Shown in pieces: positions 3,852-29,062 of a stretch of 64,000 nt of DNA (the stretch's first letter is position 1; each line of letters opens with the position of its first letter). Below the pieces are notes generated by a model. That model was not told the DNA's origin and searched no databases. It was given only the letters and a program-made list of their open reading frames with translations. This stretch comes from Nitrospira sp. (GTDB lineage: Bacteria > Nitrospirota > Nitrospiria > Nitrospirales > Nitrospiraceae). The DNA is taken from contig JAFEBH010000025.1 in NCBI GenBank assembly GCA_018242765.1, positions 140,858 through 204,857 of the forward strand. Direction: 5' to 3'. The translations under genes were made by a program, and so were the position numbers.

Positions 3852-3877
3852 TGCGACGCTGGCATCAACAACCCACT

Positions 3878-4112: not shown

Positions 4113-4122
4113 ATTCACCTCA

Positions 4123-4855: not shown

Positions 4856-4916
4856 ATGATGGCACTATCCCTTAGCGCACCACGCGAAACCTCGCCACCT
4901 AAAGACAAATTTCACA

Positions 4917-5462
4917 TTATGCTGCTGCTCTCACTAGCCTGTCGAAAGGATCATGTATTCCAAGTTTTGTAAAGACACGATAGAAGCTATGGTTCCCGCC
5001 GGCGAGAAGAAGCCCATCAACACTATTCATTAGAATCTGATGCGCGTCGCTATACTTCGTGACCCATTCGGGCTTTTTAATTTCCTGTGGTAGCACCTCT
5101 AAAATATTTTGAAACATATGAAAATCAAGGCCCCAGGCCACCAATAGTCCCAAGCCAATCGCCACAGGCGTCTTCCAGGTTTTACCTTGGAGCCACGTAA
5201 AAACTTGTTCGGCCTTGAACACAAGAGTCAGTACTATCTCTAAGAACATGGACAGCACGAGATACTTCATCAAATGAGGACCTAGTTTATCCGCGCAGTC
5301 AATGGTTGTGCCGCACTTCGGCTGCTTCTGAAGGTCTTGAGGCTCTCCCTTTGTGGAACCAGAAGACGATTGGGCATACCCTGTCTCAGAGTTAACAAAG
5401 AACTGGAAGGTTCCTAGGCTAAGAAGAAGAATGAGCAGAAAGACACGAGCGAGTAATGACAT
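4917..5462 (-). CDS. Operon-terminal small membrane protein, unknown function
   Basis: 181 aa. Signal peptide/TM (LLARVFLLILLLSLGTF) plus two further hydrophobic helices. GAGGAGAA RBS. Only 28 nt downstream of the preceding eCIS gene. The stretch is visibly AT-richer. Confidence 0.6.
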   Translation of the reverse strand: MSLLARVFLLILLLSLGTFQFFVNSETGYAQSSSGSTKGEPQDLQKQPKCGTTIDCADKLGPHLMKYLVLSMFLEIVLTLVFKAEQVFTWLQGKTWKTPVAIGLGLLVAWGLDFHMFQNILEVLPQEIKKPEWVTKYSDAHQILMNSVDGLLLAGGNHSFYRVFTKLGIHDPFDRLVRAAA

Positions 5463-5490
5463 AAAGTTCTCCTCTTGCCAGAACTGGCTT

Positions 5491-7188
5491 TTAAGCGTGA
5501 TTGGTATCAGATTGGATCTCCGTACTTTCTTGAGATTGTTTCGTTGAGCCTATAAACGGCGACAGACACCACAGCATAAGGTTGTACAGACCGGAAAAGA
5601 ACAGTCCTAGAATTCCCCCGATGCCGATGTACGTAAACAATCCCTTGACGCCCTCTGCTGGCGGCAAGTGGTTTTCCCCCACAAACCACAGTAATCCCAG
5701 GATGGCTCCGCAAATCGTGAAGGCGATAAGGTCAAGACTCAATACGAACGGATTCTTCAACGGACGTCCTACCGGCTGCCCAAGGGGACTCACGACGCAC
5801 CGACAGTCGCGCTCGACAGACACACATCCTTCCTTGTCAGCGATCACATACGCGAGAGGAGCATAGCGATGATCGATGCCACGTGGCTCCCGCTCCTCAT
5901 ACATAACGTGCCCACTCGCGTCATTTGTTTTAGGCCATTCAATATCGCGCGTCGCGGCTCTGGCTGGGATCAACCAGTAATCTCCGCTTCGATACATGGC
6001 GGGGTGGCCATTGCTCTGACTGCGAAATGTAATCTTGAGATTATCTTCGAGTTCGACCTCTACCTCCTCGCGTACAACAATCGCGCCACTAGCAATCAGC
6101 CCATTGCGGTCGCCATGGTCCCATCGTCGTAACACCGCACGACACAACTGCAGTGACGCCTCGTTCTGTGCCAGTGGATGCGTGCTCTTGAGTGTCACAA
6201 TCGTTTCCATCCCCCCCAAATCAATTTTCTCGATTTGATACAATGGTCCAGGGGTCCCCCTGAGGACGTTAGATTCATCGACGATCTCGACCCAATCATC
6301 GATATTCAATCCGCCTCGGCTATCGCTCCCGAAATACTTCAAGGTCACAAGCAATTCTTTATTATTGTGTTTAGAACACATGGCAGATTGAATGGGAAAC
6401 GTCACGGAGCCATTTTCTCGTGACCACTTGAAGGTAGCACTCCCAGATGCCGCAGTGGCTCCCTGATGAATCTCGACACGATAGAGTTGATTCTCGCCAC
6501 CTTGGTACTGTGGAGTCGTCTCAGTGCTATGCCCCCCCACCGAGGCACGCAGTGTAACGCACCCCTTCTTCTGTAATTGTTCCTCCAGAAGCTGTTGGGC
6601 GTACTCGACGAACGCTTTTCGCTTCTCTTGGACTCTCTGAGGGTTCCGAGGCCAGAGTGCTTCTCCCTTCTCGAGGCGCTGTAATTCCTTCAGCCGCGAC
6701 TCAACTTCTCCGGTCACGTGGTCATCCAGCAGAAGCGTTTTCACTTGCCACACAATCTGTCCACGAGACGACGTGTCGGCTCCTCCGAGCGCCACTTCCC
6801 GGATGCCGTCGTCTTCGGCCGCCGTCACATGCCGTTCCCACACATCGAGATAGACCAAATACTTGCCATCCGTGAGTTGCTCAGCCGCTGGGTAGTGAGG
6901 CTGCTTGTCGTACGGTTGGTCTGTGGCGTTGGTGCACCCGATACCCTGGACGTAGTAACGCCCCTTCTTAATGTGAAAGCCTGTTTCGCCTTCCTTAATC
7001 TGGAAACTCGTCGCTGTCATGCCGCCATGCGGACCGATCACATCGGCCGTCAGCGAGCGGATGGACTCCAAGAAGATCGAGACTTGTTCATTCCAATCCG
7101 CATCAAGCTGAACACGCCCTTGCTGCATGAGAACGCGCGAGAACCGTTTTTCGTGGTCATACGTCAGACGAGAAAAATCACCTTTCAT
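5491..7188 (-). CDS. DUF6519-like eCIS-associated protein with a C-terminal two-helix membrane anchor
   Basis: 565 aa. The N-terminus MKGDFSRLTYDHEKRFSRVLMQQGRVQLDADWNEQ matches the DUF6519 signature as I recall it. The C-terminus has FVLSLDLIAFTICGAILGLLWFV and LFTYIGIGGILGLFFSGLYNLMLWCL. Confidence 0.7.
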   Translation of the reverse strand: MKGDFSRLTYDHEKRFSRVLMQQGRVQLDADWNEQVSIFLESIRSLTADVIGPHGGMTATSFQIKEGETGFHIKKGRYYVQGIGCTNATDQPYDKQPHYPAAEQLTDGKYLVYLDVWERHVTAAEDDGIREVALGGADTSSRGQIVWQVKTLLLDDHVTGEVESRLKELQRLEKGEALWPRNPQRVQEKRKAFVEYAQQLLEEQLQKKGCVTLRASVGGHSTETTPQYQGGENQLYRVEIHQGATAASGSATFKWSRENGSVTFPIQSAMCSKHNNKELLVTLKYFGSDSRGGLNIDDWVEIVDESNVLRGTPGPLYQIEKIDLGGMETIVTLKSTHPLAQNEASLQLCRAVLRRWDHGDRNGLIASGAIVVREEVEVELEDNLKITFRSQSNGHPAMYRSGDYWLIPARAATRDIEWPKTNDASGHVMYEEREPRGIDHRYAPLAYVIADKEGCVSVERDCRCVVSPLGQPVGRPLKNPFVLSLDLIAFTICGAILGLLWFVGENHLPPAEGVKGLFTYIGIGGILGLFFSGLYNLMLWCLSPFIGSTKQSQESTEIQSDTNHA

Positions 7189-7197
7189 GCTTCACTC

Positions 7198-9321
7198 CTA
7201 ACTGGCGAGGATGACTCCAGCTTCCATCCCCGCCGGTATGTATTCGTTAAGCCGTCCTTCCAAGTTCGCAAGCCGCTGAGGGTGATGCAGATCATGAAAC
7301 ACCCCCAGTTCGCCTTCATCCTCTGCCCCCCGAACAATTTCCGAGCGACACGATGCAGAAAGTTGACAGTACGAGGCCATGCCATGTTGTCGGCTGGTGA
7401 AAGACGGGCGCATGCGGTTCCGTACGGCTCGTCGTGCAACAGCCACGTCCTCAGGAGTAGCCGTCGGCTGCTTCGTTCGAAGCTGGCGTTCCGCTTCCTG
7501 CTCGGCAAGGTCAGGCTGGCACTGATGACGGCTCGGTGTGCGTGATTCTGCAGGCACATAGCAGAATCGCAATGCTCCCCGTTGACGCCGATCGACATGG
7601 ATGGCACCGGTAAAGATGACATCGGCGGCTGCATCGATCGCATGGGCTCGCACCTGTCCGAGTATCGTGCTGCGCTCAATACATAACACCGCATGAGCCG
7701 CCTCATGATTCGGCGCACCCACAGCCGTTGCCTCATCACCTCCGGCGTCGATGATGCTGTTGATCACACGAATGTGGATCGGCTCAGTTCTGACCTCATG
7801 CTGCGACACCAACACCGGACCAACGATAGAGGACTCAATTACAGCCTTCTTCCCGAGACGAGTCAGCGTGAGGCTCGGCGACGCGTCTTGTCCCTTGCCG
7901 GGCACAAGCGTGCAATGCCGGAGTAGGACCTCGGCCTGTGTCGTGTCCTGTCCACCTTGCACGAGAAGAGTGCCGTCAATCAGGAGCCCGTCGAGCATCA
8001 GTCGACTCCCAGAATCGACCGTGACCTTGAACGCCCCTCGAATGACAGGGCGGGCCCTATTCGCAGCGCGTAGGTGCAGAGATTGATTCGGCCCGAGACT
8101 CAAAGAAACGACTCCGACGTCAAACTTCCCACTCGACTCAATCTCGATCACGGCGTGAGTTGGTTGATTCGTTTTCCATTGTTGCAACGTGGCGATCAAG
8201 TTTTGGCCTACGCTGACCTGATAGGGACGAGGATTCAGCGCTGTCGTCCGCACCTTCCCGACTACGTGAATCATCGGTCGATCATACTCACCGCCCCCCA
8301 CATCCGCGCTGAATCCATAGTGATAGGCAACATGTACCGTTTGAGGGGGATGCGCGAACACAATCCGTCCGCGTTCCGGATCCACGACAACCGCCGGCCG
8401 AGACTTTCTGAACGAATAGTTCCAGTCACTCAGGTCGGCCGAGACCAGATCCTTCAAGTCGACCGGGGTTTTGGCCCCGTCGATCCAGATACAGAAGCTC
8501 TTGCCTGCTCCGTAGTAATCAGCCAACCGATCACTCAGCGCACGCCGACGAATCGGAACCGGCAAGTTCATTTCATCGGCAATATGAGTTGGTTCCGGTT
8601 CTTCAATCGGCAAGGTATACAACGGGACATCGTGGCCGAATGCATCGAACCGATATCGCCCCTTAGCCGTATCGACAGCAGCAGCCTCTGTCCGTCCAAC
8701 AGGATAGGCCCTCACACGCCAGACAAAGAGGCCCACATGCGTCGGATTGTATCGACCTGGCGAACAGCGAGAAGCGAGACGGCGAACATCGACCGTGTGA
8801 GGCAGGACATCAAAGGGGGTATTCAGGAGATCAAGTTCGTCTCCACGACGGAGATCGATCATGTTGTTCCGAGACATCACGCGATGTTTCACTCCTTGAG
8901 TCCCGGCAACCAGGCGATAGAACTCCACCGCTCGCGCAGGCCATCCTGCAATATCACCGGCAAGAAACTCTAGGAGTGCGAGCGATCCCTTCCGGCGACG
9001 AAACCGCAGCGTGTTGGCAACTTCACGTCGCGAGGCGAACACGGCCTCTTGTGTCGTTGGACGTTCATCGTCGACCACGCCACGCTCACGTATTTCTGGA
9101 GCAGGCCGGTAGCCCACCAAGTCACCGAGATAAGGCACAACCCAGTCATTACAAGTCTCGATAAACCAGTTCTCATAGAGACGTTCAATGTCGTGCTCGA
9201 CAATGCCGATCTGCTCGGCGATCACGCTCAACAGCGCCTTTAACGGTTCGCCCGCCTCCTCATCACGCTGGCGGTGCACGACCGGTAAGAGTGCATAAAC
9301 CTGATCGACGGTTTTACTCAT
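7198..9321 (-). CDS. Tail protein I (gpI)-like baseplate protein fused to a parallel beta-helix-like domain
   Basis: 707 aa. The N-terminus LLPVVHRQRDEEAGEPLKALLSVIAEQ...WVVPYLGDLVGY resembles the P2 gpI/eCIS tail-protein N-terminal domain. The C-terminal half has repetitive short beta-strand rungs (LRHCTLVPG, VIESSIVGPVLV, IRVINSIIDAG, LCIERSTILGQV, VIFTGAIHV). Confidence 0.65.
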   Translation of the reverse strand: MSKTVDQVYALLPVVHRQRDEEAGEPLKALLSVIAEQIGIVEHDIERLYENWFIETCNDWVVPYLGDLVGYRPAPEIRERGVVDDERPTTQEAVFASRREVANTLRFRRRKGSLALLEFLAGDIAGWPARAVEFYRLVAGTQGVKHRVMSRNNMIDLRRGDELDLLNTPFDVLPHTVDVRRLASRCSPGRYNPTHVGLFVWRVRAYPVGRTEAAAVDTAKGRYRFDAFGHDVPLYTLPIEEPEPTHIADEMNLPVPIRRRALSDRLADYYGAGKSFCIWIDGAKTPVDLKDLVSADLSDWNYSFRKSRPAVVVDPERGRIVFAHPPQTVHVAYHYGFSADVGGGEYDRPMIHVVGKVRTTALNPRPYQVSVGQNLIATLQQWKTNQPTHAVIEIESSGKFDVGVVSLSLGPNQSLHLRAANRARPVIRGAFKVTVDSGSRLMLDGLLIDGTLLVQGGQDTTQAEVLLRHCTLVPGKGQDASPSLTLTRLGKKAVIESSIVGPVLVSQHEVRTEPIHIRVINSIIDAGGDEATAVGAPNHEAAHAVLCIERSTILGQVRAHAIDAAADVIFTGAIHVDRRQRGALRFCYVPAESRTPSRHQCQPDLAEQEAERQLRTKQPTATPEDVAVARRAVRNRMRPSFTSRQHGMASYCQLSASCRSEIVRGAEDEGELGVFHDLHHPQRLANLEGRLNEYIPAGMEAGVILAS

Positions 9322-15574: not shown

Positions 15575-15937
15575 CTACACCTTTCGGATAAAATGGGCCG
15601 TCCGACGCTCATTCGTCCGGCGCACCACGTAATGAATCATAATAATGAGTCGGCCTTCCTGGTCGTTGCTCGTCACGTCCAACCGTTCAACCGCGATGAG
15701 ATCTCCGAGCCAGCGTTGTAAGCCGGCTTGAACGGCAAACTGCAGCGCAGCAGCGAGCTCGGAATTGTTCGGTGCAAAGACCATCTGCAACAGGCCGCTG
15801 CCGAAATCAGGGCGGTTGACGCGTTCACCGGGATTGGTGAACAGAAACTCTTCGATCATGTCGCGGATATGATCCGCTTCACCCGTTGTAGCCGTACGCC
15901 TCATCCGGTCGAAATGAAAGGGATAGTCGATATTCAT
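15575..15937 (-). CDS. GPW/gp25-like baseplate wedge protein
   Basis: 120 aa. HIRDMIEEFLFTNPGERVNRPDFGSGLLQMVFAPN is the gp25/GPW core motif. Confidence 0.9.
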   Translation of the reverse strand: MNIDYPFHFDRMRRTATTGEADHIRDMIEEFLFTNPGERVNRPDFGSGLLQMVFAPNNSELAAALQFAVQAGLQRWLGDLIAVERLDVTSNDQEGRLIIMIHYVVRRTNERRTAHFIRKV

Positions 15938-16257
15938 TAATTCCCCCTGACACGCATCTGCGTCACGACGATAGTGACACCAGTCCCATTCGGTGCACAG
16001 ACCGCCTGACTATCTTGCAGCAACACCGGAATTCCCCCTGCCTTCACACGTAATGCCGCCGTCACCCACTGGGCTGTGACACAGGGGACCGGTGAACCGC
16101 TGACATTAAATGGACATCCAGCAATCGTATGCGGTGCAGTCTGAGTCACCACCATCTGCCCACTGACCTTCACCCGAAGATTGGGGGCCGTCGCTTGGGC
16201 CTGTCCCCCATGCAAACAGAGCACTGTCGCCCCCATGTGCAGGAGATACCCTGGCAT
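15937..16257 (-). CDS. PAAR-like / DUF4280-like spike-tip protein
   Basis: 106 aa, Cys/Gly/Val-rich beta protein (GATVLCLHGG...AGCPFNV...PCVTAQW...AVCAPNG). Located directly after the spike gene and shares a start/stop nucleotide with it. Confidence 0.7.
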   Translation of the reverse strand: MPGYLLHMGATVLCLHGGQAQATAPNLRVKVSGQMVVTQTAPHTIAGCPFNVSGSPVPCVTAQWVTAALRVKAGGIPVLLQDSQAVCAPNGTGVTIVVTQMRVRGN

Positions 16258-16754
16258 TACATCACCTCCAGTGCGCCGCCATTGACGGACACTTGCGGAC
16301 CAGTAAGTTTGATGCTGGCATTCTGGCCATTAGTGATCTCGAGCCCCATTGCATTCATCACGATTTTCATTCCCGCCGTTGTCTCGATCGTGATGCCCCC
16401 TGCACCGGTCACATCGTTCAGCGTGATGGTTCCCACATCGGTTTTCAGCACCTTCATCTCAGCTACCGCTGGCGTTGCCGGCAGCTCACCCTGCGCCCAA
16501 AAACATCCGGTCCACACCGGATACTCCGGATCGCCATGCTCGAACTCGATCCAGACCGAAGCATCCGTCGGCGGAATGAGAAAGAGCCCCACGTTCTTCC
16601 CGGCATAGGGCAACGCCGGAAGGGCCCACCCGCTTTCATGTTCACCGAACACATCCTGCACCTTCGCGCGGATCCGTCCCATCATCAGCGGATCGCGGTT
16701 GTCCGACACTACCCCACGAAATTTTCCGTAAAACGGCGCGCCCTGGCTGCTCAT
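16257..16754 (-). CDS. gpV/gp5 OB-fold spike (VgrG-like, Afp8 position)
   Basis: 165 aa. FYGKFRGVVSDNRDPLMMGRIRAKV...GWALPALPYAG...PPTDASVWIEFEHGDPEYPVWTGCFW is the phage baseplate assembly protein V signature. Confidence 0.85.
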   Translation of the reverse strand: MSSQGAPFYGKFRGVVSDNRDPLMMGRIRAKVQDVFGEHESGWALPALPYAGKNVGLFLIPPTDASVWIEFEHGDPEYPVWTGCFWAQGELPATPAVAEMKVLKTDVGTITLNDVTGAGGITIETTAGMKIVMNAMGLEITNGQNASIKLTGPQVSVNGGALEVM

Positions 16755-17866
16755 GGCACCACCACCGGCGCCAAGGCACCGCGGCCTTCACGCCTGAGCG
16801 AAAAGCTCTGCTTGTATTCACCGCGCTTGATCCGATGCGTCACTTCCTGCACGTAATACATGCCGTCGTAGCTTTGCCCCACACCACGAACCCCAACCAA
16901 TCGACGTGAACGTAAGGCTCGCCCATAGCGCACGGCGTCCACTTCCCCTGTCGCCGTCACCGCATCCGACGACTGACTTGCCGAGGACAGACCCCGCAAC
17001 GCGGCCTGAATCGGATTGAGATTGGAGGTATTCCTGGGTAACGTCTTCCGCAACGAGCTGGCTGGTTGCCGAGCCAAGGGTGGATGCAGACCGCTGGGCA
17101 AGGGAATCGAGATGGACCGCTTGGTGAAGGGTTCGAGAATCGTGACTTGTGGCTCAGCCGGACCCAGCGCATCGAAGCTGAACGACATCGGTTGATCCAC
17201 ATTCGTATCGGCTCCCATATTCATGGTGAGTGCCGGTTGCGGCAATCCCAATCGGTTGTCGAGGCCCCAATAGGCGTCATTGATGCCAGGGCTTAGGGTC
17301 GGCTCGATGTAAAACACGAAGCCGTTTCGCTGAGCGAGTTCGCGGATGAAATCGAGATCGCTCCCCTGCTGCGAGGGAATCCGGTCGACCTGAATCGGCA
17401 CATCCGTCGTCGGCGTCACGCGAGGCAGCAGCCCCAACGTCGGATAGTTGCCGATCAACTTGTTGACGATGACCCAATCGGCCTGGTTGGGAAAGATTTC
17501 GCTCTTCTCCTCCAGACTGAGTTTCAAGCTGATATCCTTCCCAAACACGGTCAACGTGGACTCTCCAGGCCGATTGCTGGGAGCGATCTGATGATTGGTG
17601 ATGATGCCGTCGATCAATATTTGAGGGAACACCCCGACGAAGACTTGAATAATGACCCGGCTCGGCGGATCAAGCAGCCCGCTGAGCAAGAGTCCATAAT
17701 CGAGGATCGTCTCCTTCCCCAGACTGAACGACAGCTTGAACCCGTCGAAATCTTGATCACGATTCGTGACTTCCACATCAATCAGCGCCTCCATCACCGG
17801 ATAGGGCGCGGGGATGGCAATCGTGGGGCCGATCAATAATTGGAGACGGACGCCCAAGCTTGGCAT
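16751..17866 (-). CDS. gpD/gp27-like baseplate hub protein (Afp7 position)
   Basis: 371 aa. The C-terminal YDGMYYVQEVTHRIKRGEYKQSFSLRREG is typical of the phage late control D / VgrG N-terminal family. Confidence 0.75.
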   Translation of the reverse strand: MPSLGVRLQLLIGPTIAIPAPYPVMEALIDVEVTNRDQDFDGFKLSFSLGKETILDYGLLLSGLLDPPSRVIIQVFVGVFPQILIDGIITNHQIAPSNRPGESTLTVFGKDISLKLSLEEKSEIFPNQADWVIVNKLIGNYPTLGLLPRVTPTTDVPIQVDRIPSQQGSDLDFIRELAQRNGFVFYIEPTLSPGINDAYWGLDNRLGLPQPALTMNMGADTNVDQPMSFSFDALGPAEPQVTILEPFTKRSISIPLPSGLHPPLARQPASSLRKTLPRNTSNLNPIQAALRGLSSASQSSDAVTATGEVDAVRYGRALRSRRLVGVRGVGQSYDGMYYVQEVTHRIKRGEYKQSFSLRREGRGALAPVVVP

Positions 17867-17868
17867 AG

Positions 17869-18183
17869 CTAGATCGCCCCCGATTGGGGAAACGTAATCC
17901 GCAATCGACGACCAACCGTCCTCGTCAATTCGTCAGACCGCATGGCGTTATTCGCATCGCACAGGCGCCAGAATTGCTCGGGATCGCCGAGATACCGCGC
18001 CGTGATATTGTCGAGCCGCTCCCCTTGTGTCACGACATGTTCAGCCACAATCGGCGTATTGGGGCTGACGGCCGGCACAAATCGGCGGCGCAGGTAGGCG
18101 ATCTCCTTCCCTTCTGCCGGTTCGTACTTCGCGTTTTCGATACCGTGGTACCGACTGGTCGGAGGAAACATCGTGCACCTCAC
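17869..18183 (-). CDS. LysM/gpX-like small baseplate protein
   Basis: 104 aa. GERLDNITARYLGDPEQFWRLCDANN...LRITFP resembles the LysM-like tail protein X. The GTG start overlaps the upstream stop (GTGA). Confidence 0.6.
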   Translation of the reverse strand: MRCTMFPPTSRYHGIENAKYEPAEGKEIAYLRRRFVPAVSPNTPIVAEHVVTQGERLDNITARYLGDPEQFWRLCDANNAMRSDELTRTVGRRLRITFPQSGAI

Positions 18184-18836
18184 CCAAGCTTGATGGATGT
18201 CGCAAGATTCTGCGTACTCACGGCTACATTACTGGTCGCCATCACTTCCTTCGCGATCTGATGCACCATGAAGAGCGAGTACCCGGGGTTCGTCAGCTTC
18301 AAGTCGGCGTAGCTCAACACCGTCAGCGTCAAATCGACCTTCGCTCGAATTGGATTGAGCATCGGATCGTAGGCTTCTTCCGTGATACTGAAGCCAGTGA
18401 CCCGCACCGGCAGCACGCGCGTTGCGCCCCACACAAATAAGGTCAACGGAGCCTCCGGTGGAATGATTTCAATGTTGCCGGCTTGGGCCAGCGTTGAGTT
18501 GGCGATGACCGTTACGCTCTTCGGATACAGCAACATCTCCAGCGCCGACAGGGTCGGAGAGATCCCGGAGATCAGGGCCAGGGGATTGGCCTGCTCGAGT
18601 TGGTCGGTGGCATCTACTTCAATATTGAGTGTGATCGTCTCCTTAGGCGGACCCGTCAGCCGAAACGCTTCCGATCGGTCGCTCGTGTCGCCACCACCCG
18701 TTGACCGTGCCTCCAGTCGGCGTGTCATGGTATCCGGGTTGTATTGAAACACCACCACGCTGGCGAGCGGATTCATGGCATCCACGCCAACAATCGCGCC
18801 TTTGACTAATCGAGGAGAACCGGGGAAGGAACTCAT
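18180..18836 (-). CDS. Second tube-like protein (Afp5-type inner tube/tube initiator)
   Basis: ORF extends to 18884, but the likely start is MSSFPGSPRL at 18836. VVFQYNPDTMTRRLE...ITLNIEVDATD is the CIS tube-protein N-terminal motif. Confidence 0.7.
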   Translation of the reverse strand: MSSFPGSPRLVKGAIVGVDAMNPLASVVVFQYNPDTMTRRLEARSTGGGDTSDRSEAFRLTGPPKETITLNIEVDATDQLEQANPLALISGISPTLSALEMLLYPKSVTVIANSTLAQAGNIEIIPPEAPLTLFVWGATRVLPVRVTGFSITEEAYDPMLNPIRAKVDLTLTVLSYADLKLTNPGYSLFMVHQIAKEVMATSNVAVSTQNLATSIKLG

Positions 18837-18893
18837 AACTTTAGTCCTAATTGAATCAGAGCAGCACTCTATCCAAGACAGCAAAAACCGAAC

Positions 18894-20234
18894 TCATGGT
18901 GCGACGGGCACCCTAGCTGCCCGCTCAGCGATAAGTTGGTCAATCGTAAGCCGTCGCCCATCGCTTGTTCGCACAAATACCTCGCCACCGCGCCTTTCCT
19001 GTCCAGCACGGAGAAAAATATGAAACACTCGGTAGCCTTCTTGGCTCCTGAACGCGAACACATTTGTGCCATTGGGTCTAGTCTCTTCGAAATTGAATCG
19101 GATGGTCGGATCACCAATGACATTTCGGAGAAGCTCAGCTTCCACATCGAGACCAGCTCGATGTGCTCGATCAAACTCAGCCTGGCTGAAGTTCGTGCCA
19201 ATCCGTCGATCGTAGTTGGGCACCCTAAAACGCTCTGCCAGTAGATGGAGAAGGTTCAGCTGAAAGCTGATATCGTCAGATGAGAGTAAGTCGTCAAGGT
19301 CTAAGTAACCAGAGTCGAAGTTATCAATCAAAAGAGGCACGAATCTCCCACCATCCTGAACACGACCCGCACTTGTAATGAGCCGCAGGGGAACCACTTC
19401 TCCTCGATCTATGAAACCACGCAGATGGCAGTCAAAGGTCGTGAGCGCTGTCTCATCAACTACATCGTAGACAATCCGTCTCCCATCGAGCCGATACTGG
19501 ATGCCTGTAGAAATCGCATTGAGTCGGTCGACCAATTCCTGACGTCGATCGAAGGCAGAGGCTTCTCCTCTGCCTGGTGGTCTCACTTCAACTGTGCGCT
19601 GGATAGTCGGTGCGCCTGTTGCCTGCTGCACCACATGCGTCAACTCATGAGCAATTAACCGCTGTCCCTCGTTTGTCCCTGGAGCGAACCGCCCTGCACC
19701 AAACACAATGTTATGTCCGACGGCGTACGCACTAGCGTTTACGTCACGAGCTGATTGTGCAGCGGCTGCACCGGAATGCACCCGCACCTGGGAGAAGTCA
19801 TATCCAAAACGCTGCCCCATATCTTGCTGTAGAGCCGGTTTCAGCAACTGGCCTGTTGAGTTCAAAACTTCATGCACACTCGGCGGCACATCCCCTACCC
19901 CAATTACACCAGCGGTTGCTCGTCGTTGCACCAAGGGCTGAGTCCTGCCTCCGTTCTGTTGCCTAGTCACATCCGCAGGCGACATCCACATGACTTGCTC
20001 AGCTACACGATCGGCTTCTTGCTCAAACACATCGCCTGGCTCACTGATCGCCAGCTTGGTTTGCAGCAGCTTCCCGCCAACACCCAGTTTCTTCTTCTGA
20101 CATTCCGCACACTGCCCTCCACCCATGGTGTGTGTCCCGCAGACACATTTGCGTTGCAAAACACCGCGTGAGACTGGCGTGAAGGGCATGAAACTATTGC
20201 GCCTTGTCTGGTTGTGCGTTTTCTCACTCAACAT
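18894..20234 (-). CDS. DUF4157-led eCIS cargo protein 2 with an unassigned C-terminal domain
   Basis: 446 aa. N-terminal module: LQRKCVCGTHT..CAECQKKK..LAISEPGDVFEQEADRVAEQVM...FGYDFSQVRVHSG...AYAVGHNIVFG...HELTHVVQQ. About 235 aa follow with no motif I recognise. Confidence 0.8.
   Translation of the reverse strand: MLSEKTHNQTRRNSFMPFTPVSRGVLQRKCVCGTHTMGGGQCAECQKKKLGVGGKLLQTKLAISEPGDVFEQEADRVAEQVMWMSPADVTRQQNGGRTQPLVQRRATAGVIGVGDVPPSVHEVLNSTGQLLKPALQQDMGQRFGYDFSQVRVHSGAAAAQSARDVNASAYAVGHNIVFGAGRFAPGTNEGQRLIAHELTHVVQQATGAPTIQRTVEVRPPGRGEASAFDRRQELVDRLNAISTGIQYRLDGRRIVYDVVDETALTTFDCHLRGFIDRGEVVPLRLITSAGRVQDGGRFVPLLIDNFDSGYLDLDDLLSSDDISFQLNLLHLLAERFRVPNYDRRIGTNFSQAEFDRAHRAGLDVEAELLRNVIGDPTIRFNFEETRPNGTNVFAFRSQEGYRVFHIFLRAGQERRGGEVFVRTSDGRRLTIDQLIAERAARVPVAP
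19599..20162 (-). repeat. DUF4157 leader module, copy B (paralogous to 22135-22704)
   Basis: The protein blocks are near-identical between the two cargo genes. Nucleotide similarity is visible, for example ccacccatggtgtgtgtcccgcagacaca versus ccacccatggtgtgcgtgccacaggcaca. Confidence 0.7.
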
Positions 20235-20362
20235 TTCTATTCACTCAGCCCTATTGATCTCTCATGAAACCGTGACTCCTCTGCCACCACTCGGCAGAAC
20301 CTCTTGACTCTGGGAAGGTAGGCTGTCCCCTTTTCAATTCGTTCTGCTGACATCTAACCGCC

Positions 20363-20728
20363 TTAAGCCTGGTTTACAGTAGTTAACCACTTCTCAAAGT
20401 CCTGCAATGTCATAAGAACTTCTGGCTTCAGCCGGTAGTCGTCGTTGTCAAAATCGACAAAGCACTCTGCTGGCAAACCTGCGTATGCAGGACCACTTTG
20501 TGCTGCATAAGCTCTGAAACGCACACCGGTGTCTTGGTCGAGGATTGCATATGAGTAGTAGACATCACCTGCCGAGTCTGATGCGCCAAAACGTGCCATG
20601 AGCAGTGTGCCGAAAGCCTGCACATCAAACGCCTCATCGTCCGTTAGTGTCGGATTTGTCTCATATCGACTAGCGAGTTTGGCACCGCGCACCTCTTTTG
20701 CACCAAGCCGGACATAGCGCGATCGCAT
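20363..20728 (-). CDS. Small protein translationally coupled to cargo protein 1; candidate immunity/accessory protein
   Basis: 121 aa. Its ATG shares one nucleotide with the upstream TAA (TAATG at 20726-20730). No recognisable family. Confidence 0.6.
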   Translation of the reverse strand: MRSRYVRLGAKEVRGAKLASRYETNPTLTDDEAFDVQAFGTLLMARFGASDSAGDVYYSYAILDQDTGVRFRAYAAQSGPAYAGLPAECFVDFDNDDYRLKPEVLMTLQDFEKWLTTVNQA

Positions 20729-22803
20729 TAGTCACCCTCCGGTCGCTCTTCAGTGCTTCCAGTGGCTACAAAACGTCCAAGTGCTGGAATCAGCATCAGC
20801 AGTGCTGCGGACCCCGCACCCAGCAAGGCTTCATCACCAGGCACTGGATCGAACACCGCAATCAAAGCGAGAATTCCCAGAATGATTGCGCCCACCACCA
20901 ACAACGCAATTGCGATTGCCGCAAGTGCACGCACCAGGATTTCCCCGATTGTTAGCAACACTTCACCAATGAAACCTAGGGCTTGACCAATTGCTTCTAC
21001 CATCCGTGTCAACGTCGCGCTGAGTTCAGCTAGAATTGCAGTAGCAACACGTGCAGCAACCACTGTAACCACTACTGGAATCAGTCGCTGAGTTTGCTCA
21101 CGCAACAGCCGTCGAATCCTGTCAAGCAGATCAGACAATGCCACTGCAGGCACACCAACGCATAGCGCGACCAGCGCGTTCCGCACTAATTCAGTCAATA
21201 CGCTGCGCAGTTGGTTACGTAACTCAGAAATTAAGGTGTCTGAGACTAGCCTCACCAGGGTTGTTACGATTGAACGCACCTCTGCCCCAACGGCCTGGTC
21301 GAGCAGTTGTGCGATCTGCTCAGCGGTAGCTCGGCTCAACACCTGGTCGGCAACCGGCCCAAGATACGGTCGCAACATTTGTCGGATCTGTGTACCAAAG
21401 TGACGCTCGGCTAACCGAATCAAATCACCAAGACTCTGTCGTCGTAGTGTTGCCTCAAGTGGCCTCTGTATGTGATCACGAATGAATCCATCCAACACCT
21501 CCTGCGCCGGACCGCCAACCACGCGGTCAACATATCTTGCAGTCTCCTCTGCAGACACACCACAAGTGTAGGTATCTGAACCACCGCCAGTACACCAATA
21601 CCCAATAGCACCTGGTGCAACCGTCTTTGCTTTCAATGTACGTGTGCGGTCTCCAATAAAATCGCCGATTACGGTGGTATTAGGTAACACCCCGGTCAGC
21701 CTGGTAAATGATGGTCGCAGAGGGCCACGCAGGTAACCTCTCTGAAAATCGCGGTCATCATCGCTTGCTGTCCCACAGATACCGGTACCATACAACCGGT
21801 CTACCGACTGATCGGCACGACGAATATAGTGTTCCGATTCAAGTACACCTCGTGTCGGTGCTGAGCCTATTGGCTTGATCTCTCCAATTTCGTAGAGGAT
21901 CCCGGATCGACGCATTAAATCGGCATAACCTAAACTGGTATCAACACCCTGGCAACCTTGACTGTCAATGTTCCGCTTTGTCGCACGTGGAATCGGCACC
22001 TCGTTCAACATAGGTAGCAAGAAGGTCTGGATCTGGGTATGTGCTCGCTCCCCGGCACCCATAGGTCCATTGTCGTTCTCATCCTCCTCTGTCATTGAAG
22101 TCGCGCACCCACCTGCCCCGCGTGTAGTTGCTCGCTGCACTGAGTAGCTTGCATCTACACCCGACTGTTGAACGACATGAGTCAACTCATGTGCAAGCAA
22201 GCGTCGGCCCATGTTTGTTTCAGTCGAAAATTGACCTGTACCAAATACGATATTGTGACCCACCGTGTAGGCATGGGCGTTCACATGCCGCACCGATTGC
22301 TCGACAGTCCCACCGGAATGCACTCTCACATGACTAAAATCCTGACCAAATCTTGGCTCGAAGAAGGCACGTGTAGCTCCATCAAGTGGCTGCCCTGGTG
22401 ATTTCAAAACATCACTCACACTCGACGGAGCTTCTGCCAATCCTGTTGCACCGCCGACTGCTCGCCGTTGAACCAACGGCTGTGTCATTCCGCTCTTTTG
22501 CCGTTTACTCACATCCGCCGGCGACATGCGCATCACTTGCTCAGCGACACGATCTGCTTCCTGCTCATACACATCGCCAGGTTCACTGATCGCCAGTTTG
22601 GTTTGCAGTGGCCTACCCTCGACACCCAGTTTTTTCTTTTGACACTCCGCACACTGTTCTCCACCCATGGTGTGCGTGCCACAGGCACACTGGCGTTGAA
22701 GAAGACCAGTACAGCCTGACCGAGGAGCCTGATTCCTTCCAGCTTCAGCTTGTACGGCAGTCCGTTCCATTCCCACTCTTCCCTCAGTCTCGCGGCCCCT
22801 CAC
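20728..22803 (-). CDS. DUF4157-led eCIS cargo protein 1, multidomain with a hydrophobic C-terminus
   Basis: 691 aa. It has the same leader module as cargo 2, including HELTHVVQQ. The middle domain carries GERAHTQIQ...LGYADLMRRSGILYEIGEIKP. The C-terminal ~150 aa are very hydrophobic (ALVALCVGVPAVAL; LAAIAIALLVVGAIILGILALIAVF; LLGAGSAALLMLIPALG). Confidence 0.8.
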   Translation of the reverse strand: MRGRETEGRVGMERTAVQAEAGRNQAPRSGCTGLLQRQCACGTHTMGGEQCAECQKKKLGVEGRPLQTKLAISEPGDVYEQEADRVAEQVMRMSPADVSKRQKSGMTQPLVQRRAVGGATGLAEAPSSVSDVLKSPGQPLDGATRAFFEPRFGQDFSHVRVHSGGTVEQSVRHVNAHAYTVGHNIVFGTGQFSTETNMGRRLLAHELTHVVQQSGVDASYSVQRATTRGAGGCATSMTEEDENDNGPMGAGERAHTQIQTFLLPMLNEVPIPRATKRNIDSQGCQGVDTSLGYADLMRRSGILYEIGEIKPIGSAPTRGVLESEHYIRRADQSVDRLYGTGICGTASDDDRDFQRGYLRGPLRPSFTRLTGVLPNTTVIGDFIGDRTRTLKAKTVAPGAIGYWCTGGGSDTYTCGVSAEETARYVDRVVGGPAQEVLDGFIRDHIQRPLEATLRRQSLGDLIRLAERHFGTQIRQMLRPYLGPVADQVLSRATAEQIAQLLDQAVGAEVRSIVTTLVRLVSDTLISELRNQLRSVLTELVRNALVALCVGVPAVALSDLLDRIRRLLREQTQRLIPVVVTVVAARVATAILAELSATLTRMVEAIGQALGFIGEVLLTIGEILVRALAAIAIALLVVGAIILGILALIAVFDPVPGDEALLGAGSAALLMLIPALGRFVATGSTEERPEGD
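22135..22704 (-). repeat. DUF4157 leader module, copy A
   Basis: See the 19599-20162 entry. Confidence 0.7.
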
Positions 22804-22829
22804 TTACTCACTTTGCCTACAACTTCCTC

Positions 22830-23108
22830 TTACTGTTTCTTCGCTGAGTGACTGGTCCCAATTCCCTGATACACCGCTTGAGCAATCTGCCGTCCAAGCT
22901 GGACGGGGCTTGCACCCTCTGACATATTCATCACTGTGTGCGGCACAGAAGCACGGGCGCCTCCGGCCATGGTGTCCGGTCCAACGCCATTCACTTCAAT
23001 CAAGCGTGCCAATTCCTGCTCGACGGCCCCCTGCACGAGTGCCCGTTGGCTCCCTCGGAGAGGTAGGTCGTCCAGGATTAATCGCTCGATGTGCAATCGG
23101 ACGTTCAT
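22830..23108 (-). CDS. Small conserved-looking hypothetical protein between the ATPase and the cargo genes
   Basis: 92 aa (MNVRLHIERLILDDLPLRGSQ...). 4-nt overlap with the ATPase stop. Confidence 0.55.
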   Translation of the reverse strand: MNVRLHIERLILDDLPLRGSQRALVQGAVEQELARLIEVNGVGPDTMAGGARASVPHTVMNMSEGASPVQLGRQIAQAVYQGIGTSHSAKKQ

Positions 23109-25222
23109 GCCACCACTTCCGTTTCCTCATCCCATTGGAAATCGGCTTCGTAAATGGGTCGCTCCAGTTTGCGAAACTCCGCCCGAGCCGCCTCAAAGAT
23201 GAGCGGCATGGTCACGGGTGTACCGGCACCCGCTGCGAGAAACGCGGCGTTCATCGCAACATTGTTGATATTGCCACCATTCAGGTTGAGCTGTGCCAAC
23301 CGATCGAAGTCCAGTTGGGCCGTTTCTGTTTCTCGTGGAAAGACCCGTTCCCAGATGGCCTTTCGCTCTTGGATGCCGTGGGCACGGAACTCCACGACGA
23401 ACCGAATGCGGCGCATGAAGGCCTGGTCCAACGCACTTTTCCGATTTGTTGCCAGGATGGCCAACCCCCGATAGGCTTCGATACGCTGTAAGAGATAATT
23501 GATCTCGATGTTGGCATAGCGGTCGTGGCTGTCTTTCACGTCGCTCCGTTTGCCGAACAACGCGTCGGCCTCATCGAAAAAGAGGATCGCGCCGCCGTCC
23601 TCGGCGGCGTCGAACAACCGCCGGAGGTTTTTTTCCGTTTCTCCGATGTACTTACTGACCACCGCCGACAGGTCGATCCGAAAGAGACTCAATCGCAAGT
23701 CGTTCGCCAGCACTTCGGCTGCCATCGTCTTGCCGGTACCGCTCTCGCCGGCAAAGAGGGCATTGATGCTCAATCCGCGAGAGCGCTTCGCCGCAAAGCC
23801 CCAGTCGCTATAGACCCTGGTACGGTTCGCCACCTGTGCAGCCAGTTCATGTAGGAGCTTGAGCTCCGGTTCAGGCAACACAATGTCTTCCCAAGTCGCC
23901 TTTGGTTCGATCCGCTGCGCCAACAGCTCCAAACGTGGGCGGGTGTCCACAACACAAGCCTCCCAGAGCTGCTGGGGAATGGACTGTTGTCCGATGGCAG
24001 GAGATGACAGCGTCGTGCGCGCGATCTGATGGATCGTCGTGAGATTCAAATTAAACTGGCCGGCAAGTCTCGCCGCTGTACCGTTCTGCTGAGCCCCCAA
24101 AAGAGAATCCCACGCCTGATGTTGTTCGGATTTCGTCGGCTTCCTGATATCGAATGCGACTGAGGCACGGCCCGTTTCCATCCGACGATCCTGCGTATCA
24201 AGGAAAAAGATGCCGCTGCTCCGAGCTAAGAAGCGATGCAGCGCGGACGCATGGGTATCGCCTGTGGCCGTTTTCTCCATCTCATGGGCGTCCAGGTACA
24301 AGGCAAATGGCCAGAGAACCCCTTCACGCATGAGCAACCGCGTCAGCTGTTCCAGTTCGGCTGGTGGCGATGGGAGCAACTCGATTGGGAACCGATAGAG
24401 AGACAAGCGCAGTGCCGCTGCCGCATGACTCGCGACCAGTTGCTTGCTCGATGAATCGACACCCAGCAATTGCATGACCGGAACTGCCTGCAGCGACCAG
24501 GCCTCTCCTACCTGGCGAATCATGCTGTCCACTGTTGACCGTTGCGACGGTGGGAGATCTAGACCTCGATCTTCATACCGGAGTGGCAGTAGCAATGGCA
24601 CGAGTCGATCATCCAGATAGTTGAGCCCTTTGATGTAATTCACAATGCGCTCGTCGGCCCGCAGGGCGCTCGTCGTCAGCGGCTGTGCACCAGGTTGGTT
24701 GATTTCGAGCAGCCGCCAATATCTCAAGGGCCTCTCAGGCGACAGCACATCCCAGGCCGGCTCAGCAAACAGCGCCAACGCGAGCGCAAAGGTGGGATAG
24801 CGGCGCGCCGGATCATCCTGAGCCTGCGCACAGAGCAACGCCATTCTGGTATCAAACTCCATCGCCGCACAGAGGAGAAGCACTTCACTCTCAAACCTCG
24901 ACAAGCCCAAGTTACGGCGCAGCACAATCAACGCCGGTGGCTGGTCTACTGTTTCAAATGCCGCTAGTTCCTCAGCAGCTCGCGCCAGTTGCTTCTCACT
25001 GACACTGTTAGTTCCAACGGCAGGTTGAGCCTGTTTCGCGTCACGTCCTGATGAACGTCGAACACCTTTGTGCGGAGCCGAGCGAGGTTCTGGCTGTACC
25101 CGTGACGCTGCACCAGCTGACTGCTCGATAAACCAGGCCAGGCGGAACCGTAGCCATGCTAGTGCTTTCCTCAAATACTCATCATTCTGTTGCTGCCACG
25201 ATCTTGACTTCGAGGCTTTCAT
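23105..25222 (-). CDS. eCIS AAA+ ATPase (Afp15-like)
   Basis: Walker A is GESGTGKTMAAE and Walker B is ILFFDEADALFGKR, within a single C-terminal AAA module after an N-terminal region of about 450 aa. The likely start is the ATG at 25222, which overlaps the cap-gene stop (ATGA). The track ORF extends to 25273. Confidence 0.9.
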   Translation of the reverse strand: MKASKSRSWQQQNDEYLRKALAWLRFRLAWFIEQSAGAASRVQPEPRSAPHKGVRRSSGRDAKQAQPAVGTNSVSEKQLARAAEELAAFETVDQPPALIVLRRNLGLSRFESEVLLLCAAMEFDTRMALLCAQAQDDPARRYPTFALALALFAEPAWDVLSPERPLRYWRLLEINQPGAQPLTTSALRADERIVNYIKGLNYLDDRLVPLLLPLRYEDRGLDLPPSQRSTVDSMIRQVGEAWSLQAVPVMQLLGVDSSSKQLVASHAAAALRLSLYRFPIELLPSPPAELEQLTRLLMREGVLWPFALYLDAHEMEKTATGDTHASALHRFLARSSGIFFLDTQDRRMETGRASVAFDIRKPTKSEQHQAWDSLLGAQQNGTAARLAGQFNLNLTTIHQIARTTLSSPAIGQQSIPQQLWEACVVDTRPRLELLAQRIEPKATWEDIVLPEPELKLLHELAAQVANRTRVYSDWGFAAKRSRGLSINALFAGESGTGKTMAAEVLANDLRLSLFRIDLSAVVSKYIGETEKNLRRLFDAAEDGGAILFFDEADALFGKRSDVKDSHDRYANIEINYLLQRIEAYRGLAILATNRKSALDQAFMRRIRFVVEFRAHGIQERKAIWERVFPRETETAQLDFDRLAQLNLNGGNINNVAMNAAFLAAGAGTPVTMPLIFEAARAEFRKLERPIYEADFQWDEETEVVA

Positions 25223-26490
25223 TGTACGGTGACCTTCTTCGTCGTATCGAATTCCGGCGGCGTCTTGCTCCAATCGACCAGAAGGCTATCCACTCCATCC
25301 ACCCGTAGTCGGACGAAATAGATCCCAGGCACGATGTTCTTCAGGCGAAACTTCAAGGTATCCGTCTGTGCTGGGCGTGTTTCCGGATGCAGCTCTCGAT
25401 CGCCCAACAGGAGCGCCACACGCTGGGTCGCCTGTACCCTGGGACTCACTTGAACGGTTAATATCGCATCTCGCCTGACTGGCTTCGGAGTAACGTTCTC
25501 AATTTTTGGCGCAATAGACAGACTGAGGGCATTGGTCATCCGCTCATTCCCCGCTGCCGCCGGATCGATCGGTGTGATGTGGGCGGCCACGGTATAGAAC
25601 CCTGCCGGCAACTCGGTCGGCTTGTTCGGAACGGTCACCTTCAGCTCCTTGTCCGTTCCGTTCTTGGCCGGAATCTCCACAGTCTTCTTGAGCAACGGAT
25701 GCATCAGGTGCACTACCACCGAACTTTCACCCAAATGATGCCCCTTGATCAGGAGCTCATCTCCCAACAGTGCAGTGGGCTGTTGTTTCGGCAGTTCTGT
25801 CATATCGATCAATTTCTTACTCGGCTCTCGTGTCGGAACCGTAATCTCCGTCAGCGTTGGGAACGGCGTCGTCAAATCCGGCTGGACCACGACTCCCCGA
25901 TCATTTTTTCCGCGCAGCAACACCGGTAAGGGCGTCCTCGTCAGTCGTGTACTCTCGATCAGCACCACGGAGACTTGGTAGGCTGCCGATAGGCGGTAAT
26001 GGATCTGAAAGGTCGTCCAAAGCTTCGACATTTCTTCAAACAGCAGCGGCTGAAGGGTAATGCGAACACGCTCGACCTGGTCTGCCAGATCGCTGGCGGC
26101 CAAATCGCGGTCGGCCCGCACGGCATCTCTGATTTCGTCCGTCCCTAAGAGCGGATGGTCATGTAAAATGCGCATGGCCTCGCCGAGCAGGGCGTGACTT
26201 CTCGTCTCATCACGTTCATCGCCGCTGTACGCCGTCAGCAAGTAGTACAGTGTGAGCGGCAACGGGGGCTGGCCGGTTTCACCGGATTTCACTCGGCCCG
26301 GCATTTCCATATTGCGAAAGGCCGCATCCGGTAACGCCTGATAGAGAAAGAGATTGATCCGTTGTTTGTCGGCATTAATCCCTTCCGGCGCTTTGTCTAA
26401 TGGCCTGACCGTCACGTGTTCCACTCCACCTTTTTCCAGCAGTCGACGCAATGTCGCGGTCACCGAGGCAATCGCCAGTGAATTGCTCAT
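25219..26490 (-). CDS. DUF4255 (Pvc16/Afp16-like) tail terminator/cap with a long C-terminal extension
   Basis: 423 aa. The N-terminus MSNSLAIASVTATLRRLLEKG...INLFLYQALPDAAFRN is the DUF4255 signature. The C-terminal ~220 aa look like two beta-sandwich repeats. Confidence 0.8.
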   Translation of the reverse strand: MSNSLAIASVTATLRRLLEKGGVEHVTVRPLDKAPEGINADKQRINLFLYQALPDAAFRNMEMPGRVKSGETGQPPLPLTLYYLLTAYSGDERDETRSHALLGEAMRILHDHPLLGTDEIRDAVRADRDLAASDLADQVERVRITLQPLLFEEMSKLWTTFQIHYRLSAAYQVSVVLIESTRLTRTPLPVLLRGKNDRGVVVQPDLTTPFPTLTEITVPTREPSKKLIDMTELPKQQPTALLGDELLIKGHHLGESSVVVHLMHPLLKKTVEIPAKNGTDKELKVTVPNKPTELPAGFYTVAAHITPIDPAAAGNERMTNALSLSIAPKIENVTPKPVRRDAILTVQVSPRVQATQRVALLLGDRELHPETRPAQTDTLKFRLKNIVPGIYFVRLRVDGVDSLLVDWSKTPPEFDTTKKVTVQ

Positions 26491-27779: not shown

Positions 27780-28504
27780 CCCTGCACCATGTCCAGATAG
27801 CACTGGCGCCGCCAGGCACTCATCCTGAGGATGTCACCCTCGGCCCACCCGTACGCCGAGGCCAGAAGATGAACCTCACCCAACAACCGCTTTGCCCAGG
27901 CACCGATCTCACGCCACACAAACGATGCAATGTCGAAGAGCGCCTGCCATTGATATCCGCATGCGGCACAAGTCACCGCAAGCTCCACATCACCTTGAGG
28001 ATCGGCTTCTGCCATCCGTTCAATCACCGGTTCTGCAAGCGAACTCGGGAATGCCGTTGTCGTCTCGCCGCGATGCATGACTCGAATCAGACACCGTTCC
28101 AGTAAGAGCTGTTTGGCTGCACCTGGTTCGGGCTTGTGCACGACCATCATCAAGTCCTCACTCGTCGGCAGTCGGAACGTCACCTGGTAGTCGTCGACGT
28201 CACAGACAAACTCTTCTTGCGTCTCACTCTTCAGCGGCACTCGAATCTGATCGACCTCAAACACGAGATCAAGACTATCCCGGCATTGAGGACACACCAC
28301 CACTGTCTGCACGCATGATCCAAACAACTGTTCCCGCAACGCGAGTAAGAGTGCGTCACGACGGCCGATCGGCAGGCGGGCCAGTTCACCGACCGCCGTC
28401 TTCGGAAGCGCCTCAGCCAACAGACTCAGTGCTTGATTGACTGAGGACTGCCCCACACCACGTTCCCACACTCTCAACAGAGCACTCGCGGTGAGTACGT
28501 GCAT
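27776..28504 (-). CDS. Conserved eCIS protein with a CxxC...CxxC zinc ribbon; possible assembly chaperone
   Basis: 242 aa. CPQC and CAAC are spaced about 115 aa apart. It sits immediately downstream of the tube gene. Confidence 0.6.
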   Translation of the reverse strand: MHVLTASALLRVWERGVGQSSVNQALSLLAEALPKTAVGELARLPIGRRDALLLALREQLFGSCVQTVVVCPQCRDSLDLVFEVDQIRVPLKSETQEEFVCDVDDYQVTFRLPTSEDLMMVVHKPEPGAAKQLLLERCLIRVMHRGETTTAFPSSLAEPVIERMAEADPQGDVELAVTCAACGYQWQALFDIASFVWREIGAWAKRLLGEVHLLASAYGWAEGDILRMSAWRRQCYLDMVQG

Positions 28505-28510
28505 CGGCTG

Positions 28511-29038: not shown

Positions 29039-29062
29039 ACTTATCCCTCCTCACATCAATCG

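Follow-up and report, generated by a model that had tools for sequence, protein, structure and literature searches.

The 64,000-nucleotide stretch of DNA analysed here (the window; Nitrospira sp., contig JAFEBH010000025.1) was found to contain a complete operon of a contractile injection system (CIS) on the minus strand, running from ~30838 down to 4917 in Pfam scans of the operon proteins. The gene under study, near the distal end of the operon, was found to encode a 565-aa protein with a DUF6519 core followed by the presence of a C-terminal hairpin of two hydrophobic helices, which is predicted to be embedded in the membrane. An earlier note on this DNA had described the product as a distal DUF6519-like protein of an extracellular CIS (eCIS), encoded by the penultimate gene of the operon behind a gpI-like gene, in the usual position of tail fibres, and ending in two strongly hydrophobic helices at nt ~5550-5750. 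These points were borne out. The match to Pfam PF20129 (E 9.4e-80, 269.3 bits vs a cut-off of 22.4) covered aa ~1-467 and the operon position was of the eCIS type; the gene was found to be penultimate among the intact genes, the 181-aa gene being next and a truncated hydrolase remnant lying beyond; and both hydrophobic peptides were placed within nt 5563-5748, where hydropathy and the AlphaFold2 (AF2) model agreed.

The first helix was found to contain the peptide FVLSLDLIAFTICGAILGLLWFV (aa 481-503, nt 5680-5748) and the second helix the peptide LFTYIGIGGILGLFFSGLYNLMLWCL (aa 517-542, nt 5563-5640). The Kyte-Doolittle means over 19 residues (KD19) had maxima of 2.29 at aa 479-506 and of 1.71 at aa 516-539, while in most of the operon's other proteins they remained below 1.6, and two such windows anywhere in the protein were obtained in 37 of 20,000 shuffles. 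The residues AVLIMFWCG made up 70% of the hairpin region and charged residues 7%, against 43% and 26% in the core. In the AF2 model the helices were found at aa 485-505 and 513-546, after the last beta-strand of the globular part, with a moderate confidence (predicted local distance difference test, pLDDT, 60-80). Inspection of the alignment revealed hardly any charge and no amphipathic faces in the helices, followed by the presence of 8-17 residues in the connecting loop across orthologues. The second helix was rich in Gly and small residues and contained invariant G, G, S and LYN residues in the motif IG...G...S.LYN. The C-terminal tail (aa 547-565) was found to have a pLDDT below 50 and a ratio of nonsynonymous to synonymous substitution rates (dN/dS) above that of the hairpin.

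No signal peptide was found in the 565-aa protein, so the large N-terminal domain should fold in the cytoplasm, and from this large signal-less domain and the model we infer that the loop is periplasmic and that both ends of the hairpin are cytoplasmic. A hydrophobic hairpin at the C-terminus with a short connecting loop is of the kind that bacteria insert post-translationally, e.g. via YidC, and the C-tail-anchored protein TssL from type VI secretion systems (T6SS) is a known example of post-translational insertion.

The protein was 100% identical to a hypothetical protein of a Nitrospira sp. metagenome-assembled genome, and 7,999 homologues were found, with invariant motifs common to them and the target protein. 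The AF2 model had a mean pLDDT of 82.8 (112-sequence alignment), the core being mostly above 85. In Foldseek the model matched the phi812 baseplate (9eui_Q, E 1.3e-6) and TssK (5y0e_C, E 4.3e-4; also 6giy_D and 6n38_F), and a baseplate chain of the thylakoid-anchored CIS (tCIS) of Anabaena (7b5h_AA; prob 0.92, E 0.075), followed by the presence of many models of phage receptor-binding proteins (down to E 1.5e-9), tail fibres and DUF4815; the global TM-scores were only ~0.2. A sequence search of the PDB gave a marginal DUF4815/phi812 match alone (E 0.19). On the model, the N-terminal part is a predicted baseplate-attachment domain, the fold of which may be like that of TssK and of the shoulder of phage receptor-binding proteins; this agrees in kind with the literature. 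A 2026 catalogue named DUF6519 eBAP5 and described it as a domain by which eCIS tail fibres are anchored to the baseplate; eBAP3 and eBAP4 (the Cis19 'crown' of the Anabaena tCIS) are given as its relatives, eBAP3 resembles TssK structurally, a Tail_P2_I/TssG-like adaptor probably carries eBAP3 and eBAP5, and transmembrane (TM) segments are unmentioned in the paper (PMC12923769). A tail fibre of this family would have a free C-terminus or a soluble receptor-binding domain; the 565-aa protein had neither, and Pfam, hydropathy and AF2 gave no receptor-binding domain at its C-terminus, where the hydrophobic hairpin was found instead.

The hairpin was found to be conserved, with invariant small-residue motifs, in all of the 15 full-length Nitrospira orthologues that were aligned (56-90% identity); its absence from all orthologues, which the earlier note had named as a refuting outcome, was thereby not seen. 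When hairpin proteins were clustered at 90% identity, 16 clusters (56-100% identity to the query) were obtained from independent NCBI, JGI, ENA and Logan assemblies; every one of them kept a tail of ~90-103 residues with both helices, and all were labelled Nitrospira wherever named. The dN/dS of the hairpin against orthologues was 0.10-0.21, with the core in the same range and the last 19 residues looser, and on these sequence data the hairpin is under purifying selection. A frameshift or gene-fusion artefact was rejected, the open reading frame being continuous in the 16 clusters and the dN/dS being 0.1-0.2.

Outside this clade no such hairpin was found. The 97 distant DUF6519 proteins (<=45% identity) ended 4-53 residues past the core, with a hydrophobic segment in none of them. 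Among 80 species-representative loci from many phyla the hairpin was present only in Nitrospira locus L010 and absent from the other 79, some of which had long soluble extensions; L069 was rejected as a TM-bearing DUF6519 protein, its hydrophobic stretch sitting within a globular extension. When aa 466-565 were compared by exhaustive phmmer with 1.84 billion representatives, P0014 of the same clade was the sole match, and a profile of nine hairpins returned only two same-family fragments; full-length members were not re-listed by the latter, so its candidate selection may be imperfect. By sequence comparison, the hairpin is a lineage-specific gain confined to this Nitrospira clade.

Two further kinds of C-terminus were noted in the family. 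Locus L064 of an uncultured Nitrospiraceae was found to encode a DUF6519 protein of 1028 aa (37% identity) that has, in place of the hairpin, a long extension which is soluble and beta-helix-like, so that the family-level lineage appears to include both 'fibre' and 'anchor' versions. Among the ordinary DUF6519 proteins of ~460 aa, a large subgroup (e.g. P0019, P0030, P0031 and P0039) was found to end in a conserved Cys-rich tail of 30 residues, C.F.PLSY.C.YSYYGQLGIGIGVDLLCPE, which may be a docking element or a disulfide-stapled cap.

The order gp25, two Baseplate_J genes, a ~710-aa gene and DUF6519 was common to the window and to the Nitrospira, Methylomonas and other loci (Table 1). The tandem Baseplate_J paralogues were kept in all DUF6519-type loci seen and are reminiscent of the Streptomyces CIS baseplate with two Cis11 per wedge. 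The 707-aa protein gave nothing in a sequence search of the PDB; its orthologues had weak N-terminal matches of the Mu gp48 / P2 gpI type and kept their position, after the two Baseplate_J genes, in all loci, in accordance with the gpI-like predecessor named in the earlier note. The 707-aa adaptor is likely to be the docking partner of DUF6519. Pfam revealed eCIS markers in the operon (Pvc16_N, eCIS_core and an Afp15-like AAA ATPase) and no TssJ/L/M or ClpV-type genes.

Table 1. Features of the CIS operon in the window and hydrolases of the related Nitrospira loci
Feature	Position (nt) or locus	Strand	Basis
565-aa DUF6519/eBAP5 baseplate-attached 'fibre' protein with predicted C-terminal membrane hairpin	5491..7188	-	ORF (open reading frame); Pfam PF20129
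DUF6519 core, aa 1-470, predicted cytoplasmic globular part	5779..7188	-	Pfam, AF2, Foldseek
Predicted TM helix 1, aa 479-505, conserved A.T..GA.LG..W	5674..5754	-	KD19, AF2, 15-orthologue alignment
Connecting loop, predicted periplasmic, aa 506-512 in the model	5653..5673	-	AF2, alignment
Predicted TM helix 2, AF2 aa 513-546, hydrophobic core 517-542	5551..5652	-	KD19, AF2, invariant columns
Hydrophilic C-terminal tail, aa 547-565, poorly conserved, predicted cytoplasmic	5494..5550	-	pLDDT, dN/dS
181-aa small membrane protein, candidate holin-like protein or membrane partner	4917..5462	-	KD segments, SD (Shine-Dalgarno), alignment
Truncated Rv2525c-like glycoside-hydrolase endolysin remnant, first ~83 aa	4517..4855	-	PF08924, tblastn
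707-aa baseplate-periphery protein (P2 gpI / Mu gp48 / TssG-like adaptor)	7198..9321	-	Conserved position, orthologue matches
Two paralogous Baseplate_J (Cis11-like) wedge proteins, 1077 and 1007 aa	9318..15571	-	PF04865; TIGR02243 E 1.6e-74, 2.3e-101
Rest of the CIS operon: gp25, PAAR-like, VgrG OB, hub, LysM-like, CIS_tube, 2x eCIS_core (DUF4157), AAA ATPase, Pvc16_N cap, T4_baseplate-like, gp19 tube, sheath	15575..30838	-	Pfam
Hydrolase: Amidase_2 (polycationic C-tail)	L001, L002/L003, L090		PHROG endolysin E 1e-17
Hydrolase: Rv2525c-like glycoside hydrolase + SH3_3	L091/L092, L093		
Hydrolase: SH3_3 + CHAP	L010		
Hydrolase: SH3_3 fragment	L006/L007		

One of the two eCIS_core (DUF4157) proteins, a 691-aa cargo-type protein at 20728-22803 (-), was found to have a very hydrophobic C-terminal part of ~140 residues, with 4-5 TM-like segments and KD19 up to 3.2 in aa 538-679; judged from its sequence, it is a candidate membrane-inserting or pore-forming effector. 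The second eCIS_core protein (446 aa) was found at 18894-20234. Immediately upstream of the sheath gene, at 30908-31342 (-) and 31471-32151 (-), a DNA-binding protein of the LuxR/GerE type was found together with a small ORF that is receiver-like and has weak CheB/MadR receiver matches; the CIS operon may have in them a dedicated pair of regulators. Scanning the surroundings of the target gene for promoters and terminators gave nothing over the shuffle expectation.

The gene of the 181-aa protein was found to start 28 nt past the stop of the DUF6519 gene; its Shine-Dalgarno sequence, AAGAGGAG, is strong and lies 7 nt upstream of the start. The protein contained an N-terminal signal-like segment and a variable linker, then two TM helices that enclose an invariant loop, KAEQVFTWLQGKTWKTP, and lastly a C-terminal region that is conserved. 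Only 10 homologues were found, the named or contig-traced ones belonging to Nitrospira CIS loci, and the counterpart in L001 was 34% identical. A lipoprotein or spanin reading of the protein was rejected, no lipobox being seen by eye. A counterpart followed the hairpin gene in every Nitrospira locus examined. In Methylomonas L008 the DUF6519 gene (457 aa) was found to end the operon and the small membrane gene was absent; L009 was uninformative, its contig ending ~150 bp past DUF6519. The gene distribution indicates that the small membrane gene was gained together with the hairpin.

The position after the small membrane gene was occupied in the Nitrospira loci by a signal-less peptidoglycan hydrolase of three unrelated types (Table 1), the swaps of which do not track the phylogeny of the neighbouring DUF6519 gene. 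No amidase gene was found in the window, a truncated Rv2525c-like gene being present instead. The remnant matched positions 2-60 of 198 of the PF08924 profile (E 4.7e-8) and was 77% identical to aa 1-83 of the intact 292-aa orthologue of L091 in tblastn; the intact hydrolases of related loci have 289-292 aa. The lysis enzyme appears to have been lost in the genome of the window, and hairpin and small protein were found to persist in loci with a lost or truncated hydrolase. A FitA-like antitoxin and PIN toxin pair was present beyond the remnant, at 3459-4099 (-). In 4001-6000 the G+C content fell to 0.497, the remainder of the operon being at ~0.55-0.57; hairpin, small membrane gene and hydrolase remnant are all covered by the dip. 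This is compatible with a later acquisition of the 3′ module or with a hydrophobic codon bias.

Lysis cassettes of the holin/endolysin type are known beside the Afp and R-pyocin clusters. Holin-endolysin cassettes of phages and tailocins have as their hallmark a small membrane protein and, behind it, a fixed slot in which cytoplasmic muralytic enzymes are exchanged for one another, and the Nitrospira slot is therefore read as a probable lysis cassette, in which the 181-aa protein and the hydrolase would most likely be a holin-like/endolysin pair, the role of the small protein following from its position only. As in the tailocin and Afp cassettes, a small membrane gene is followed by a signal-less hydrolase of swapped type at the edge of the cluster; unlike in these, the 181-aa protein may carry a cleavable signal peptide, no spanin was recognised and the hydrolase is truncated in the window.

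A direct precedent for an anchored machine is the tCIS of Anabaena sp. PCC 7120, which is held by a TM helix of Cis13 and becomes free-floating when the helix is truncated, and which was observed to fire only once cells had lysed and formed ghosts (PMC8894136). Like Cis13 (PDB 7b5h), the Nitrospira protein is a probably baseplate-attached protein of an eCIS-type cluster, encoded in the tail-fibre position, with a C-terminal TM segment, which is predicted here. Cis13 is, however, a short trimer of fibre-like form that inserts into thylakoids and has a single predicted TM helix (aa 122-154), whereas the Nitrospira protein has a 470-aa DUF6519 domain and a two-helix hairpin, appears closer to the tCIS 'crown' / TssK shoulder class and has a probable holin-like/endolysin cassette attached to its locus. 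The anchoring by Cis13 was shown experimentally. Nitrospira, a bacterium without thylakoids, is not known to have intracytoplasmic membranes. The 565-aa protein is unlikely to be an orthologue of Cis13, the description of which sets the two apart; on the model, it would join a crown/TssK-like attachment domain and a Cis13-like anchor in one polypeptide.

The eBAP5 tail fibres were found to share the N-terminal family of ~470 aa and the operon position after two Baseplate_J genes and a gpI-like gene, whereas the described members (PMC12923769) stop after the core or bear macroglobulin, lectin or pectin-lyase receptor-binding domains, and a TM segment was found in none of the 176 non-clade members examined. 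TssK has a shoulder-type fold of phage receptor-binding protein origin, which the DUF6519 domain may share. TssK is soluble and links the baseplate wedge to the membrane by binding a separate TssJLM complex; the TssK-like protein of Nitrospira, in contrast, bears a predicted TM hairpin of its own and TssJLM genes are absent. Connectors between baseplate and membrane have also been proposed elsewhere, namely Hbor_38620 (six TM helices) of the haloarchaeal T6SS, for the cytoplasmic membrane, and CisA (a single TM segment and a periplasmic domain) of Streptomyces. Both are clade-specific membrane proteins with genes alongside an eCIS-type cluster, and a similar role is conceivable for the 181-aa protein; they are, however, stand-alone proteins outside the particle and no sequence relation to the 181-aa protein was detected.

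The best available explanation of these features is that the hairpin anchors the DUF6519 baseplate protein, and hence the CIS, in the cytoplasmic membrane of the producer, where lysis would expose the anchored machines rather than free them; we give this reading about an even chance. The C-terminal ~70 residues would form an integral-membrane helical hairpin with cytoplasmic ends and a short periplasmic loop, inserted post-translationally, probably by a YidC-type route. The N-terminal domain would dock on the gpI/TssG-like adaptor of the baseplate wedge, probably as trimers, and the assembled CIS would be tethered with its baseplate against the inner membrane of the Nitrospira cell. The small membrane protein and the cytoplasmic hydrolase, gained with the hairpin, would act as the holin-like/endolysin pair, and programmed lysis would strip the wall and expose membrane-bound CIS on ghosts or membrane fragments, not as free particles. 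This mode is favoured because the lysis cassette was gained together with the hairpin, and it is ranked above T6SS-like firing from living cells, above a holin-component role for the hairpin and above the use of the hairpin on released particles. The proposal of the earlier note that the particle is tethered rather than simply released is retained for the anchoring part; it is too simple in that lysis appears to be part of the design, the note having missed the downstream context of a clade-specific small membrane protein and of an interchangeable hydrolase in the orthologous loci. Rather than an anchor, or in addition to one, a lysis apparatus may be what the hairpin and the small membrane protein belong to.

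Several points weigh against anchoring followed by lysis. The membrane anchoring was drawn from sequence and model, the TM prediction coming from hydropathy and AF2 only, and a position-independent sum of the Hessa type was marginal for the helices (~-2 to +3.6 kcal/mol). The placement of DUF6519 at the baseplate comes from literature modelling and weak fold matches (full-length TM-scores ~0.2) rather than from a solved structure of the family. The 181-aa protein matched no holin family in Pfam, PHROG or NCBIfam, which is weak evidence, holins being very diverse, and its AF2 model, with a pLDDT of 49, was too poor for a fold search. The truncated hydrolase may make the lysis step defective in the genome of the window. 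A lysis cassette is also expected for an ordinary released eCIS, as with Afp and the R-pyocins.

The last point leads to an ordinary released eCIS, in which the hairpin would insert into a target membrane or hold particles on vesicles as a receptor-independent adhesin. The operon with its Pvc16_N cap, AAA ATPase and eCIS_core cargo and a lysis cassette as in Afp and the pyocins is in line with this, as are the receptor-binding domains that other family members carry at the same C-terminal position. A fully hydrophobic hairpin made near the membrane would, however, insert or aggregate before release, a chaperone-like partner was not evident, and the tCIS precedent favours insertion into the membrane of the producer; release is considered improbable, slightly more so than a T6SS-like mode, which we regard as unlikely. 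In the latter the hairpins, perhaps with the small protein, would form a minimal membrane complex and the machine would be fired on contact from living cells, the hydrolase opening the wall locally. The TssK-like fold matches of the N-terminal domain and the reported similarity of eBAP3 to TssK point in this direction, and archaeal and Amoebophilus CIS with eCIS-type genes are known to act as T6SS via anchors other than TssJLM. The invariant TM-loop-TM core of the small protein suggests a fixed interaction, and hairpin and small protein are retained where the hydrolase is lost or truncated. The hydrolases are, however, signal-less and phage-endolysin-like, unlike exported wall-remodelling enzymes, and the operon has neither the TssJ/L/M and ClpV-type genes nor an outer-membrane-spanning component.

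The hairpin could itself be a lysis device, a two-TM module like a class II holin that forms a two-component holin or a holin/antiholin pair with the small protein and frees the endolysin once the structural protein accumulates. It adjoins the small membrane gene and the endolysin position, its ~90 aa with two TM helices, small-xxx-small motifs and a hydrophilic tail follow the class II layout, and hairpin, small protein and hydrolase occur together only in this clade. Against this, no stand-alone homologue of the hairpin was found by phmmer or profile search, the fused 470-aa oligomeric domain should hinder holin rafts, the C-terminal tail is acidic or neutral and not basic, no holin-family match was obtained in a scan of the full-length protein only, and the hairpin is kept where the hydrolase is lost; the probability of such a device is rated low, below that of release. 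Just as low is that of a combination, in which the hairpin would be anchor and trigger at once: with the small protein it would form a two-component holin-like device fused to the baseplate, docking would gate the release of the endolysin, and an order of 'assemble, then lyse' would leave loaded CIS arrays on ghost membranes. Least probable of all, and very doubtful, is a hairpin outside the membrane, as a buried element (a trimer-of-hairpins bundle) or a neutral fusion remnant. The marginal Hessa-type hydrophobicity and the moderate AF2 confidence would fit it, whereas the helices lack charged or amphipathic faces and the hairpin is under strong purifying selection and was kept across ~50% sequence divergence.

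The membrane anchoring of CIS is already known from tCIS with Cis13, the haloarchaeal T6SS with Hbor_38620 and Streptomyces with CisA, and Cis13 of Anabaena is the sole demonstrated fibre-borne membrane anchor. No study of a Nitrospira CIS was found in the literature. New in the present system are the carrier (DUF6519/eBAP5, TssK-like), a predicted hairpin anchor with homologues in this clade only, the occurrence in the phylum Nitrospirota and the link with a probable lysis cassette. If the anchoring is correct, a second and independently evolved anchor would suggest that the membrane tethering of eCIS-type machines is a recurrent solution. The mode of CIS deployment (free, T6SS-like, thylakoid-anchored or cytoplasmic) can currently not be read from gene content (PMC12998442), and TM segments on eBAP proteins would then provide a simple sequence signature for predicting the mode of action. 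Not every DUF6519 protein should be catalogued as a receptor-binding tail fibre. Should the hairpin be anchor and trigger together, the ghost-cell strategy of the tCIS would have in the nitrite-oxidising Nitrospira a counterpart that evolved independently, outside the cyanobacteria. Key nitrifiers, Nitrospira form dense microcolonies, and for nitrifying biofilms a lysis-coupled, membrane-displayed weapon would have a bearing on competition, on kin sacrifice and on the defence against grazing.

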